Shown piece after piece: positions 36,425-45,120 of a DNA stretch of 64,000 nt; the first letter of the stretch is position 1, and every line of letters begins with the position of its first letter. The notes below the pieces were generated by a model. That model was not told the origin of the DNA. It saw nothing but the letters and a program-made list of their open reading frames with translations, and ran no database searches. Where the stretch lies: positions 224,001 to 288,000 of the IMG/VR virus record IMGVR_UViG_3300002835_000001, one strand, 5' to 3'. Position numbers and translations under genes: made by a program. The stretch comes from a virus. Taxonomy: Duplodnaviria > Caudoviricetes.

Positions 36425-36496
36425 GCTGATTTAGCTCAGAGGCAGAGCACGAAGCTGTTAACTTCGGGGTCCGGATATCGTAATTCTGAATCAGCG
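36425..36496 (+). tRNA. tRNA-Asn(GUU), atypical T-loop
   Basis: GCTGATT/AATCAGC; CGAAG-CTGTTAA-CTTCG; T-loop reads ATCGTAA. Confidence 0.8.
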
Positions 36497-37982: not shown

Positions 37983-38055
37983 GGGATTGAGGTCAAACGG
38001 TTAAGATGTCGCCCTGTCACGGCGCACGGAGCGGGTTCAACTCCCGTCAGTCCCG
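37983..38055 (+). tRNA. tRNA-Asp(GUC)
   Basis: GGGATTG/CAGTCCC; CGCC-CTGTCAC-GGCG. Confidence 0.88.
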
Positions 38056-38057
38056 CA

Positions 38058-38258
38058 ATGAGTAAGAAGTACTCAGTAAGTTTGGTAACGTTCTTTCAAG
38101 ATGTTATGGTTGTCTCCTACCACGGCCTTAAGAGGGGGTCTCGGAATATGGGGGTAACAATCCCACCGAGTATGTTTGACTTTTTAAGCGGTAAGACGCG
38201 TTGGGTTTTTCAATAGGAAAAACTGTGAATATCTACTCACTGGGACTTCAGGTGGGAC
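38058..38258 (+). ncRNA. Candidate structured ncRNA between tRNA-Asp and tRNA-Ser
   Basis: CTCGG..CCGAG enclosing GGG-gtaacaa-TCCC; GTTTTTC-aatag-GAAAAAC; GTGA..TCAC. Confidence 0.4.
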
Positions 38259-39991: not shown

Positions 39992-40015
39992 TATATTTGA
40001 ATTATAGTTCTTTGA
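39992..40015 (+). promoter_or_regulatory. Host-type promoter plus boxA-like element before tRNA-Leu
   Basis: TATATTTG 39992-39999; AGTTCTTTGA 40006-40015. Confidence 0.6.
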
Positions 40016-40034
40016 TTTATTGGAAAAACAAAAT

Positions 40035-40232: not shown

Positions 40233-40271
40233 AAACACTATCGTTCTTTGAAAATAAAGGAGAAAATTAAT

Positions 40272-40560: not shown

Positions 40561-40634
40561 GGTTCCGTAGCTCAGTTGGATAGAGCAACATCCTTCTAAG
40601 ATGTGGGTCTTTGGTTCGAATCCAAACGGGATCA
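40561..40634 (+). tRNA. tRNA-Arg(UCU)
   Basis: GGTTCCG/CGGGATC; ACATC-CTTCTAA-GATGT. Confidence 0.93.
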
Positions 40635-40687
40635 CGTAATCATTGAAAAAAACGATATCAGATTTTATCGTTAGATTAAACGATAAT

Positions 40688-40761
40688 GGACTTGTAGCTC
40701 ACTAGGTTAGAGCGGCACACTCATAATGTGAAGGTAATAGGTTCGATTCCTATCTGGTCCA
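40688..40761 (+). tRNA. tRNA(CAU): Ile2 or elongator Met
   Basis: GGACTTG/CTGGTCC; CACA-CTCATAA-TGTG; identity not resolvable by eye. Confidence 0.8.
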
Positions 40762-40888
40762 CTATTTAAAGTATGGGATTCCGATGGAAGTCCGCAAGAA
40801 AAATAGATGTTTTTCATCCATCAAAAAATCATCATAGAGGCCGCTAAATCGAGTTAGTGAAAATCTACATTCTCTGTGATGATCATAT

Positions 40889-41039
40889 TGTAGTGTGACG
40901 AAATTGGCAAACGTGCCCTCCTGTCTCGGGGGCGTGGATAAAGAAATAGATTGATAATATTAGGGGGTAGACCACCAGCTTGCAAGCGTCATGTTATCAA
41001 TCGAATCTCCACTTGGTGGTTCGAATCCATCCACTACAG
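40889..41039 (+). tRNA. Non-canonical tRNA-like RNA with GUC loop and 82-nt variable arm
   Basis: TGTAGTG/CACTACA acceptor, G73; Leu/Ser-type D arm; CCCTC-CTGTCTC-GGGGG; GGTGG-TTCGAAT-CCATC T arm. Confidence 0.75.
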
Positions 41040-41095
41040 CTTTTTATAAATAAATTTTGTTTTGTCAATTTTATTTCTTATATTTTATTATAAAC

Positions 41096-41329
41096 ATGGA
41101 AAATATGAAATGTATTAAATTAATTAAAGCAAGTAAAGGTCACGAAATTGGTCAAATTTTAAGAGTAAACGATGATGAGGCAGATTTAAGAGTAAAAGGT
41201 GGTTATTGGTCATTTGCACCAAAGACCGAATATAAACTTTATAAGAATCCTGACTACAAAACAAAGAAGACATCTGAGAAAGTATCTTCTAAAAAAACCT
41301 TGAAAAAAAATAAAGTAGAAAATAATTAA
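41096..41329 (+). CDS. Small basic hypothetical protein
   Basis: Probable start MENMKC; Lys-rich tail. Confidence 0.55.
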   Translation: MENMKCIKLIKASKGHEIGQILRVNDDEADLRVKGGYWSFAPKTEYKLYKNPDYKTKKTSEKVSSKKTLKKNKVENN

Positions 41330-41336
41330 AAAATAT

Positions 41337-41417
41337 TTTGTTTTTTCAAAAAGTATTCGTATATTTGTAAAAGAAATCAGATAGATGGTTTCTAAAAACA
41401 AGAAATAGTTCTTTGAA
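41337..41417 (+). promoter_or_regulatory. Full Bacteroidota-type promoter plus boxA-like element before the large RNA
   Basis: TTTG 41337-41340, 19-nt spacer, TATATTTG 41360-41367; AGTTCTTTGAA 41407-41417. Confidence 0.75.
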
Positions 41418-41426
41418 TTAAAAATA

Positions 41427-42222
41427 TTGGCCGCCTATGGTCAACAAAATAAACCACGAAAGTGGGATAAAGTGATTTGGTTTGGTTAAATCAAGTTGCG
41501 GTTTCAGCAATGGAACTTGAGTAGGCAAACAGAATATCGTTGAACCTTAATTACCGAGGGTAACACTGTAGGGAAAGTGGTTTAATGACTAAGCAATCCG
41601 AGTTGTTTGGTTGAGGTGGGAACACCAATAAGAATAATCTGTAGAGTTATTACAAGAAGTAGGACGTCCAATCTTACAATTGTGTGACTCAATATGATGG
41701 GAATCTTAAAACCGAAAGGTATGGTGAAGTACGAGTGGTGTCGTTATCATCCTTAATTGAACTCTACCAAGGGTTTAGTTTTGAAGGGGTCCAAAAATAT
41801 GGTAGCAGGGATGTTACAGAGAGTAGTTTAGTATCGAGTTGTTCAAAAGATAACTTGGCTGGCAGACGAGCCACTACTTTCCAAATTCGGAACCAATAAC
41901 AATTGTTAATTACGGTTTAACAACTCAAACAACAAGGAAAAGTGCTCGTCAGTCGTTGGAGACAGGTGACTACACAGTCGAGAGAGGTTCTCGGCCACAA
42001 AGGGTCCAAACCCAATGTGATTTTTAAGAAAGTTCTCTAAGTTCGCAAGACTTAGTCGGGGTGGCAACCTCGAAGAGTAATGAGTATTAAAAGAGTATCT
42101 AACGACTTAAGGATTGGTTAATCTAATTGACCGTCGCTGATTGGTACTACTCAAAAGGTAGTGGATAAGAGAAGAAAAGATAATGTCTCTAAAGTCAATC
42201 GTTAAATGGTGTAATCTCAGCC
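41427..42222 (+). ncRNA. Large ornate ncRNA, GOLLD-like (~800 nt)
   Basis: No credible ORF, GC-richer than the flanks, GNRA hairpins, several long-range 7-bp pairings, beside a tRNA array, own promoter; family call from size, context and recalled 3' motifs. Confidence 0.72.
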
Positions 42223-42358
42223 TTTTCTTTTTTTAATTTTGTGTAAAATTAAATGGTGGAATCTAACGATATTAAAAACCGTTCGGCCCTAAAAAATTAG
42301 TCATAAGAAATTATGGCTTTTTTTGTGCTTTTAATAAAATTTTACTTATATTTGTTTT

Positions 42359-43111
42359 ATGAGAATAGTTTGTATATCAGACACACATAGTCTTCAGGAT
42401 TTAATGTCTCACCCAATCCCCAAGGGTGATATATTGATACATTCAGGGGATATTTCAAATAAAGGAGGTGAAAAGGATGTCACCAATTTTGTACATTGGT
42501 TTCAAAACATTGAGGGTTTTGATTCTAAGGTATTCATTGCCGGTAATCACGATTTTTGTTTTGAAAAAGTTAATCAACCTCATCACAAAGGTGATTATGA
42601 TTGGTTACATAATTTAATGTCGCCTGAGAATCTATCACAATCTAATGTTGAGTATTTGGAGGATAATTCATTTGTAATAGAGTCACCTGAATTTTCAAAA
42701 CTAATTAAAATTTACGGAAGTCCTTGGCAACCAAATTTTTACGATTGGGCATTTAATTTACCGAGAATGGGTGATGAACTTAAATCTAAATGGGATATGA
42801 TTCCTGATGATGTTAATATTTTAATCACTCACGGACCCCCAAATGAGATTAGAGATTTTGTAAGTAACTGGAGACAAGGTGATATGAATGTTGGTTGTGA
42901 ATTGTTAAGACACCAATTAGATAACAGAATTAAACCAGTACTACACGTATTTGGACATATCCACGGAGCATATGGTGCGGCACTAATTAAGGATACTCTT
43001 TATGTAAACGCATCAACTTGTACTGAAAGATACGAACCAACAAATAAACCAATCATTGTTGACTTAACTGAAGTTGATGGTAAATTAATTGCAACATATG
43101 TCGAAGAATAA
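42359..43111 (+). CDS. Calcineurin-like metallophosphoesterase
   Basis: CISDTH, IHSGD, AGNHD, ITHGPP, FGHIH; TATATTTG 4 nt upstream. Confidence 0.92.
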   Translation: MRIVCISDTHSLQDLMSHPIPKGDILIHSGDISNKGGEKDVTNFVHWFQNIEGFDSKVFIAGNHDFCFEKVNQPHHKGDYDWLHNLMSPENLSQSNVEYLEDNSFVIESPEFSKLIKIYGSPWQPNFYDWAFNLPRMGDELKSKWDMIPDDVNILITHGPPNEIRDFVSNWRQGDMNVGCELLRHQLDNRIKPVLHVFGHIHGAYGAALIKDTLYVNASTCTERYEPTNKPIIVDLTEVDGKLIATYVEE

Positions 43112-43781
43112 CCAACCAATTAGTGTTGTAATATCAACACGAAAAATTGATGATACGTATTTAAAACACGTAGAAAAAATGTTTTCACACCCTAAGACTC
43201 AAATATTAATTTATGAGAATGATGGTGTCGATTCTTTACCCAAAATTTACAATTTAGGATTACAAGAATCCGAACATGACATTGTTGTGTTTATGCATGA
43301 TGATCTTATTTTGGAAACAACAAACATTACACCGAAAGTTGTTAGATTATTTAATGAGAATCCTGAATATGGTATAATTGGATTGGCTGGTACCGATAAT
43401 CTAATAAGTGGGATGTGGTGGCAAGACAAAGAGTCGATGTATGGAGTTGTTGGTCACGAACACCAAGGTAAACGACATGTAAATCACTATTCAAAGAAAT
43501 CATTTGGCGATAAACCAAAGGAGGTTGCTATTGTTGATGGTTTATTCATGATGATACATAAAAAAAGAATTAAACACACATTCAACGAAGAGTTTAGTGG
43601 GTTTCATTTTTACGATTTACCGATATGTGTGGAAAACCACTTAGATGGTGTTAAAGTTGGTGTGACAACCAAAATTATGGTAACACATAAATCGATTGGT
43701 ATGGTAAATAAACAATGGGAAAAAAATAAGTTGTTTTTTGAGGCATTATATGAAAAACACTTCCCTTTAAGGGTTAACTGA
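43098..43781 (+). CDS. Glycosyltransferase family 2-like protein
   Basis: YN.GL..S..DIVVFMHDDL, GIIGLAG, V.IVDGLFM, FHFYD. Confidence 0.85.
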   Translation: MSKNNQPISVVISTRKIDDTYLKHVEKMFSHPKTQILIYENDGVDSLPKIYNLGLQESEHDIVVFMHDDLILETTNITPKVVRLFNENPEYGIIGLAGTDNLISGMWWQDKESMYGVVGHEHQGKRHVNHYSKKSFGDKPKEVAIVDGLFMMIHKKRIKHTFNEEFSGFHFYDLPICVENHLDGVKVGVTTKIMVTHKSIGMVNKQWEKNKLFFEALYEKHFPLRVN

Positions 43782-44160: not shown

Positions 44161-44207
44161 TTTGTTTTTTAACCCTTTTTTATCTATCTTTGTAAAAGTT
44201 CTTTAAA
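44161..44207 (+). promoter_or_regulatory. Full Bacteroidota-type promoter plus boxA-like element before tmRNA
   Basis: TTTG 44161-44164, 20-nt spacer, TATCTTTG 44185-44192; AGTTCTTTAAA 44197-44207. Confidence 0.78.
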
Positions 44208-44211
44208 ATAT

Positions 44212-44617
44212 GGGGATGCTTGGAATTGATTTCAGGTATCAGGGGTAAATGGCACGTAGTCAGACTTCATCTATGACTTAAATCTATGGTGGAAAATTTT
44301 AGACGGCAACGTTTATAAAAACATGGAAATTGCAGGTTTACTTGCAACTTCTAACGTAGAAGTAGCCTAAGGCAAAACTACAATCGGGTCGATGTACATA
44401 TAACCTAGGAACAGAAGTACTCAAGGTGTAATACCACCCAAAGATGTATTAGGAGTCTCGTTCAGGGGTCTACTCCAACACAAGTGAACCCGACACAGTT
44501 ATTGGTAACGATGTCAAAATAGGAACCAATTATTTGTCTGTTGTGAACTAACAGAATAAACGTGTAGTCATTTATTGTTGAACCGGGAAGACCGGAGTTC
44601 GAGTCTCCGCATCTCCA
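44212..44617 (+). ncRNA. ssrA: tmRNA
   Basis: GGGGATG/CATCTCC acceptor with G3-U70, A73; TTCGAGT T-loop; tag ORF 44305-44370; adjacent smpB. Confidence 0.93.
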
Positions 44618-44620
44618 CTC

Positions 44621-44652
44621 AAAGGGGTTTCATTAATTGGAACCCCTTTTTT
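44621..44652 (+). terminator. Terminator after tmRNA
   Basis: AAGGGGTTTC-attaattg-GAACCCC followed by T-run. Confidence 0.8.
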
Positions 44653-44682
44653 ATTTTAAAAAATTATACATATATTTGTAAT

Positions 44683-45120
44683 ATGAAAAATGTCATTGAT
44701 AATCGAAAAGCTTATTTTAATTATAATATCGAGGATAAGTACACCGCAGGTATACAATTAATTGGTACTGAAATAAAGTCCATTCGTGAAGGTAAATTAA
44801 ATTTTAACGATTCATTTTGTTTATTCATCAATGGTGAATTATTTGTCCGAGGGATTTACATATCAGATTATTCTTTTGGTGTAAAACATGAAAATGTTAG
44901 AGATAGGAAATTACTACTAACCAAAAAGGAATTAAAGAAAATACAGGAATCAATTAAAGAAAAGGGATATACGATTGTACCATTAAAAGGGTACTTTACG
45001 GATACGAATTATTTTAAAATAGAGATTGGTATTGGTAAGGGTAAAAAGTCCTACGATAAGAGAGAAACAATAAAAAAAAGGGACTCTGAACGTGAGGTTA
45101 GAAGATTGGTGACCACATAA
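44683..45120 (+). CDS. smpB: SsrA-binding protein SmpB; start reassigned to 44683
   Basis: NRKAYFNY, AGIQLIGTEIKSIR, RDRKLLL, GKGKKSYDKRETIK. Confidence 0.95.
   Translation: MKNVIDNRKAYFNYNIEDKYTAGIQLIGTEIKSIREGKLNFNDSFCLFINGELFVRGIYISDYSFGVKHENVRDRKLLLTKKELKKIQESIKEKGYTIVPLKGYFTDTNYFKIEIGIGKGKKSYDKRETIKKRDSEREVRRLVTT

Follow-up and report, generated by a model that had tools for sequence, protein, structure and literature searches.

The window, by which we mean the whole stretch of 64,000 nucleotides that was analysed, encodes a major head protein, a portal, a large terminase and a Clp-like ATPase, and the head, portal and terminase genes therefore assign it to a tailed phage. A search among deposited phage genomes returned no close relatives, only short matches in Acinetobacter phages and in a pair of very large uncultured phages. 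Between 36345 and 40761 the Rfam models find 14 tRNA genes, the nearest of which lies 0.7 kb upstream of the RNA that is the subject of this report, and a tmRNA gene (44212-44620, 76.9 bits) is found 2 kb downstream of it. A preliminary description of this DNA had noted that GOLLD RNAs occur beside tRNA genes, and this is the case here. ARAGORN finds 12 tRNA genes; two tRNA-like genes, at 36425-36496 and 37983-38055 (47 and 50 bits against the Rfam tRNA model), are absent from its result. The gene smpB stands directly after the tmRNA gene and overlaps it (44212-45120; Pfam SmpB, E 4.5e-53). Genes for a calcineurin-like phosphoesterase and a family-2 glycosyltransferase are located directly downstream of the RNA unit (42359-43781), the former with a TATATTTG box of its own, at 42347.

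The plus strand from 41429 to 42223 is a GOLLD RNA gene of about 795 nt and a full member of the Rfam GOLLD family. An Infernal run with Rfam 15 took in all 4227 Rfam families, and GOLLD (RF02032) was the sole match at 41427-42222. This match extends over 41819-42223 (+) and scores 316.1 bits (E 1.2e-89), where the gathering score is 150; it spans model positions 1-416 of 416, so that it is not truncated. The result was unchanged in a permissive Infernal search of 40750-42400 at an E-value threshold, in which no other Rfam family matched the leader, body or trailer at E≤1. The preliminary description had named GOLLD as the probable identity, with a new class as the alternative, and had proposed a comparison with the Rfam models of GOLLD, ROOL and OLE; the full-length match confirms the first and excludes the second. 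Its size estimate of about 800 nt was likewise correct. The RNA comprises two domains and a variable linker. Only two short open reading frames are present, of 71 and 53 aa, in agreement with the statement that none is credible, and the region was rightly called GC-richer (G+C of 0.37-0.43 in 41427-42222 versus 0.25-0.30 in the flanks).

GOLLD RNAs were first described from lake metagenomes and from prophages of Lactobacillales. In this family the 3′ region is described as universally conserved and the 5′ region as less so, a variable linker is present, and the whole RNA measures about 800 nt or more (PMC12286853). The window RNA has the same size and is arranged alike, with a 3′ half that is conserved, a 5′ half that is less so and a linker that varies; it is likewise phage-borne, beside tRNA genes and from lake water, and carries self-complementary loops at the cage-bridge positions. 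Nothing places it outside the family; it is an ordinary new member of GOLLD, and no new family is added. Nevertheless, its 5′ domain represents a single subfamily, to which 44 of the 117 phage loci fetched belong, and its linker contains no tRNA. Many GOLLDs form part of tRNA arrays, but this gene stands by itself and has a promoter, a boxA leader, a conserved trailer and a terminator of its own. ROOL and OLE are also large, ornate and non-coding, and ROOL is moreover phage-associated, found near tRNAs and cage-forming. However, neither Rfam model gave a match in 40750-42400 at the gathering score or even at E≤1, and the sequence and fold of the window RNA are those of GOLLD.

Covarying structure of the two domains

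The Rfam GOLLD model represents the conserved 3′ half of the RNA only. In the window this 3′ domain (41819-42223, +) is preceded by a 5′ domain outside the model (41429-41818, +), which was recognised by nhmmer matches to 44 IMG/VR loci and by a covarying consensus fold. Homologs were collected by scanning IMG/VR with the invariant GOLLD 3′ 15-mer, which yielded 117 loci. The 5′ part of the window (41370-41818) matches 44 of these by nhmmer, and in all 44 the match lies directly upstream of the 3′-part match on the same strand. The nearest homologs reside on contigs of 214-287 kb, and more distant GOLLDs, confirmed with Rfam, occur in two uncultured phages of huge size (635 and 642 kb) as well as in Acinetobacter phages.

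Covariation was assessed in an alignment (A1) of 32 sequences, consisting of the window and 31 distinct full-length homologs from uncultured phage contigs that are 54-93% identical to it. Conservation in this alignment begins at the GGCC at 41429. The RNAalifold consensus has 185 predicted pairs, 130 of them compensatory, and the check for covariation among homologs that had been proposed for this RNA thus gives a strong signal. The 5′ domain alone accounts for 101 pairs, 71 of which are compensatory, with 97% standard cells. In contrast, controls in which the 3′ partner was moved by 1-3 columns give about 40% standard cells and 20-30 compensatory pairs, and the opposite strand reaches 81% rather than 97% standard. 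The covariation of the 5′ domain and the RF02032 match together therefore indicate that 41429-42223, 795 nt in length, is one structured RNA on the plus strand.

Five of the six helices listed in the preliminary description are upheld by the 32 sequences. The hairpins CCAC-GAAA-GTGG (41454-41465; 100% standard, three of four pairs compensatory), GGTG-GGAA-CACC (41615-41626; 100%, four of four) and ACC-GAAA-GGT (41711-41720; 99%, two of three) are all located in the 5′ domain. The proposed pairing of GACGAGC with GCTCGTC (41865-71 with 41944-50) is 100% standard, with compensatory changes in six of seven pairs and slid controls at 24-49%, and this covariation defines a pseudoknot helix across the linker (41865-41950, +). 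Equally well preserved is AGTCGTT(GGA)/(TCT)AACGACT, 41951-60 with 42098-107 (99% standard, nine of ten compensatory), which is the long-range helix AGUCGUUGGA/UCUAACGACU drawn with square brackets in the Rfam model (41951-42107, +). The remaining candidate, GGAAAGT/ACTTTCC (41572 with 41876), was rejected, as it is 71% standard against 25-67% in slid controls and its pairing breaks at the end of the helix in most sequences. At the position of its 3′ strand, ACTACTTTC pairs locally with GAGAGTAGT (41819-27/41873-81; 100% standard, three of nine compensatory), as in the Rfam model.

The domains are separated by a variable A-rich linker (41882-41943, +), which corresponds to poorly conserved columns of variable length in the alignment and to a single-stranded stretch in Rfam. 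The linker does not align, and inspection by eye did not identify a partner within it for the L20 kissing loop. The RNA closes with the 3′-terminal hairpin GGU-GUAAUCUCA-GCC (42208-42222, +; L27 of the family in the Rfam alignment), followed by a U-rich tract (42223-42234) of a kind found in most homologs. This hairpin is invariant among the homologs, although its invariance says little because they were selected with this very 15-mer.

The transcription unit and its RNA in lakes

A promoter had been claimed at 41337-41367, and it is real as a sequence match of the form TTTG-N19-TATATTTG. Both the sequence and a motif scan describe a Bacteroidota-type promoter (41337-41367, +) with a -33 TTTG (41337-40), a 19-nt spacer and a -7 box TATATTTG (41360-67); a consensus sigma-70 scan missed it. 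The TAnnTTTG -7 box has been described as a conserved feature of Flavobacterium and Bacteroides (PMC7641319), and the promoters of this phage suggest that its host is a member of the Bacteroidota. Among the 31 homolog rows, TAnnTTTG precedes the leader in 23, including all nine closest relatives.

The leader begins with a hairpin in a boxB-like position (41372-41393, +), in which 8 bp (41372-79/41386-93) enclose a 6-nt loop (fold of 41368-41428, z -2.5). A boxA-like element, GTTCTTTGAA (41408-41417, +), was then recognised by comparison with homologs and with rRNA operons; its 9-nt core at 41408-16 is GTTCTTTGA. The string TTCTTTGA is kept in 29 of the 31 homologous GOLLD leaders, and a hairpin of differing sequence occupies the same place in most of them. 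The order of promoter, hairpin and boxA is likewise found in most rows, while the other leader sequence varies freely. Hairpin and boxA are 14 nt apart in the window, and they abut in many homologs and in several rRNA leaders. Eight GOLLD loci with other 5′ domains contain no boxA-like word within 2.5 kb upstream, and the leader therefore belongs to the subfamily of the window rather than to GOLLD generally.

Downstream of the RNA, the ten closest relatives and the predicted fold define a conserved 3′ trailer (42232-42289, +) made up of a hairpin (42232-53), the single-stranded AUGGUGGAAU, a second hairpin and GGCCC. The second hairpin has compensatory changes among these ten relatives; the trailer gives no Rfam match at E≤1. 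Within it, 42250-69 is similar to the 3′ end of GOLLD. An intrinsic-terminator-like hairpin, AGUCAUAA-GAAA-UUAUGGCU, follows with seven U residues (42299-42325, +; -7.1 kcal/mol, z -2.1), and an equivalent hairpin and U run are present in the ten closest relatives. This A/U-rich hairpin was missed by a consensus terminator scan because it has few G-C pairs. In more distant homologs, the end of GOLLD is instead followed by a tRNA at a distance of 10-20 nt.

Fourteen lake or freshwater metagenome runs contain more than 80% of the sampled words of the gene-free stretch, and in six metatranscriptome runs roughly half of the words sampled from 41370-42330 are present. We mapped the contigs of four of these six metatranscriptomes, from four studies, to 40600-43000. 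They cover the region from about 41435/41446 to 42222 with a summed word depth of 10^2 to 10^4, where contig depths sum over related strains and prove neither strand, ends nor level. In contrast, the depth is approximately zero over the upstream gene and leader (41005-41409) and over 42230-43000, so that the trailer has almost no cover. Contig pieces with lengths of 300-328 nt show 3-7 letter differences from the window. One contig has its first window base, 41435, immediately behind Illumina adapter sequence, and another (X18) ends at 42222, with trace cover only beyond 42226. DNA carry-over would have covered the flanks as well. The contigs provide good evidence that the RNA of the window, or of near-identical strains, accumulates in lakes, and the parts devoid of RNA-contig cover give a hint that leader and trailer are removed from it.

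The boxA word and a proposed rRNA-type antitermination

The leader had been called boxA-like in the preliminary description, and this holds; GTTCTTTGA at 41408-16 is the 9-mer of sampled Bacteroidota rRNA operons. The sample consisted of 16S genes and their flanks from Labilibacter marinus, a Pedobacter and sampled other Bacteroidota (loci L243-L272). Among the 23 operons with enough upstream sequence, 13 carry GTTCTTTGA within 300 nt before 16S, and the word is present again in the 16S-23S spacer of 19 of the 23. Twenty further sense-strand hits all lie 70-630 nt after the end of 16S, in the 16S-23S spacer, and the count on both strands outside rRNA leaders is 21 hits in 189 kb. Several of the rRNA leaders have a hairpin that directly abuts the word. 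Leader and 16S-23S spacer are the textbook placement of rrn boxA. Because GTTCTTTGA occupies both, we take it to be the rrn boxA of Bacteroidota, and the GOLLD leader to be a copy of an rrn leader. A simple boxA consensus for the phylum would be GTTCTTTGA(C/A/T)A.

The same signal recurs elsewhere in the phage. The boxA word, or a version of it that is one letter off, is found 5-7 nt after a TAnnTTTG box in three further places, before tRNA-Ser/Glu (box and word at 38077/38090; 38077-38099), before tRNA-Leu (39992/40007; 39992-40016) and before the tmRNA (44185/44198; 44185-44207). Another boxA word (40243-40252) precedes a small ORF that is followed by tRNA-Arg and tRNA-Met. The combined promoter-plus-motif pattern has four matches in the window where 0.56 are expected, and three of the four are those of tRNA-Ser/Glu, tRNA-Leu and the tmRNA. 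The stable-RNA units of this phage hence seem to share a promoter-boxA signal.

The rrn antiterminator of E. coli consists of boxB, boxA and boxC in leader and spacer, and the corresponding complex, rrnTAC, includes NusA, NusB, NusE, NusG, SuhB and S4. In E. coli the Nus complex protects the transcription of rRNA from Rho and helps the RNA to fold co-transcriptionally; antitermination in Bacteroidota itself has been little studied. An untranslated and intricately folded RNA of 800 nt shares these needs of rRNA, and it is for this reason that we propose a role for boxA and Nus factors in GOLLD synthesis, a proposal founded on the 9-nt word and its position. Host RNA polymerase would start a few bases after 41367, and the boxA word would recruit the host NusB/NusE-based rRNA antitermination complex. 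This complex could take the polymerase across 800 bases that are not translated, with no termination by Rho, and might help the GOLLD RNA to fold during its synthesis, with leader and trailer presumably being trimmed off afterwards. The earlier suggestion that the RNA is expressed like an rRNA finds support both in this sequence anatomy and in the confinement of the metatranscriptome contigs to the RNA.

Like an rrn operon, the unit combines a strong host promoter, a hairpin and the rrn boxA of the phylum, GTTCTTTGA, with a long, untranslated and folded stable RNA whose leader appears to be trimmed. In contrast to an rrn operon, the unit is phage-borne, its product is not rRNA, no second boxA is present inside or after the RNA, and no conserved leader-trailer processing helix was found. 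By eye, an A/U-rich pairing between leader and trailer is possible in the window, but it is not conserved because the L105 group of homologs is A-rich on both sides. Among phages, the nut sites of lambda provide a boxA-type signal for early mRNAs, which acts together with the phage N protein. In the early region of T7, boxA lies downstream of promoters A0-A3 (PMC3709561). The window resembles both phages in that a host boxA is set behind promoters for the host polymerase, in the window presumably also for processive transcription; however, the signal serves early-gene mRNAs in T7 and lambda, whereas in the window it precedes the stable RNA genes for GOLLD, tRNAs and tmRNA. The literature searched on GOLLD with antitermination, or with phage, tRNA or expression, contained no link between GOLLD and boxA.

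Alternatively, the RNA could be a genuine GOLLD in which GTTCTTTGA is a promoter element close to the start, a signal for RNase processing that rRNA precursors also carry, or a site for a phage protein. For example, the word is only 5-7 nt from the -7 box before tRNA-Leu, tRNA-Ser and the tmRNA, which puts it at or next to the expected start, and the leader is missing from the accumulated RNA contigs, so that this region is at least also a trimming site. A fixed promoter element is nevertheless a poor fit to the GOLLD leaders, where a hairpin separates the -7 box from the word and their distance varies between about 20 and 45 nt, and the copy in the rRNA spacer cannot be a promoter element at all. 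Moreover, the identical word stands at both classical boxA positions, leader and 16S-23S spacer, of Bacteroidota rRNA operons. We consider these other functions unlikely, and an antitermination signal that recruits Nus factors remains our preferred reading of the leader.

Self-complementary loops, probable cage assembly and a possible biological role

The GOLLD RNA of solved structure, env-38 (833 nt), was shown by cryo-EM to form an RNA-only cage of 14 copies, in which the 5′ domains are the caps, the 3′ domains are the rings, and the linker is disordered inside (PMC12286853). The two halves of this cage are joined via the self-pairing loops L21a, which lies 177 nt from the 3′ end and switches between GC and CG, and L21b, which is highly conserved (PMC12286853). 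The window RNA has a counterpart of L21a in a hairpin with the loop CGCAA (42044-48; hairpin 42040-42052, +), mapped by its distance from the 3′ end only, and a likely L21b in a hairpin with the loop UGGCA (42062-66; hairpin 42056-42073, +), mapped by position only. The central dinucleotide of the CGCAA loop is GC in 22, AU in six and CG in two of 30 sequences of the alignment, and all of these are self-complementary; the GC of the UGGCA loop is invariant in 32 of 32. By analogy with env-38, the palindromic loops support a cage-type self-association of the window RNA. Its copies would join through the self-pairing CGCAA and UGGCA loops into a cage made of RNA alone that encloses the variable linker.

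It is also conceivable that this GOLLD acts as a monomer inside the cell, or together with proteins or ribosomes, and that the RNA-only cage is a form taken in the test tube that does not extend to this member. Cage formation has been demonstrated in vitro only and for other GOLLDs, the solved one being env-38. According to a review, a construct of the GOLLD 3′ domain varies in stoichiometry (decamers and others), and binding of GOLLD to ribosomes in pull-downs is cited in PMC12286853. Four related GOLLDs (L105, L011, L119 and L106) are without the whole L21a-like hairpin (alignment columns 796-811), and these close homologs of the window RNA may assemble differently. However, palindromes that persist through switches between GC, AU and CG, together with a second loop that is invariant, are hard to explain unless the copies pair with one another, and the solved GOLLD multimer is still present at 12.5 nM (PMC12286853). 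We therefore regard a purely monomeric or partner-dependent function as improbable, and assembly into a cage as the better account of the conserved loops.

That the stretch could instead be a new ornate RNA class, a GOLLD relic that has decayed or lost its function, or a sequence that codes for a protein is scarcely credible and is refuted by the Rfam match, the covariation and the RNA contigs, for although the Rfam model is silent on the 5′ 390 nt and two short ORFs exist, the GOLLD match is high-scoring and full-length, the 5′ domain is contiguous with the 3′ domain in every homolog and covaries, the RNA is abundant in metatranscriptome contigs, and the ORFs reach only 71 and 53 aa while helix-keeping compensatory changes reveal selection on RNA structure. 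As a whole, the locus is best explained as the GOLLD gene of an uncultured tailed phage of lakes, organised as a promoter-boxA unit, with probable antitermination during its synthesis and probable assembly of its product into a cage. We assign this reading a probability of roughly 85%.

GOLLD is one of the largest non-coding RNAs of bacteria and phages and forms RNA-only cages in vitro. The part of the present findings that we did not find in print is the rRNA-type hairpin-boxA leader that is shared with the tRNA and tmRNA genes of the phage. This leader predicts that Nus factors act in the synthesis and folding of GOLLD, and the fact that it is shared places GOLLD among the translation-related stable RNAs of the phage. 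A broader and more tentative idea, whose chances we judge to be somewhat below even, is that phages of Bacteroidota run a stable-RNA regulon, comprising GOLLD, tRNAs and tmRNA, on the rRNA transcription machinery of the host, and that the Nus complex recruited by hairpin and boxA is needed both against Rho termination and for the folding of GOLLD into its cage. If this is true, then GOLLD would amount to a pseudo-rRNA of the phage, produced by the host apparatus for rRNA synthesis and perhaps in competition for it. Because GOLLD sits among tRNAs, tmRNA and smpB, one may further speculate that its cage serves the takeover of translation by the phage. The locus offers a clean case for study, as it is a stand-alone unit in which promoter, leader, trailer and terminator can all be read, the RNA appears abundant in natural lake RNA, and genetic tools are available in the phylum Bacteroidota to which the host probably belongs.

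Pattern searches for related loci in bacteria require some caution. A search with a pattern from the 5′ domain found one locus in a metagenome-assembled genome, which proved to be unrelated. When bacterial genomes were scanned for the 3′ 15-mer of GOLLD, at least 120 loci were obtained, none of which matched the window by nhmmer, and 13 of 20 sampled loci had a TPP riboswitch at the hit (loci L122-L190). The GOLLD 3′ motif GGUGUAAUCUCAGCC (42208-42222) is the exact reverse complement of the core of the TPP riboswitch, and because of this identity the scan permits no inference about hosts or prophages. The complementarity between the two RNAs is probably a coincidence, and a trap for pattern scans.
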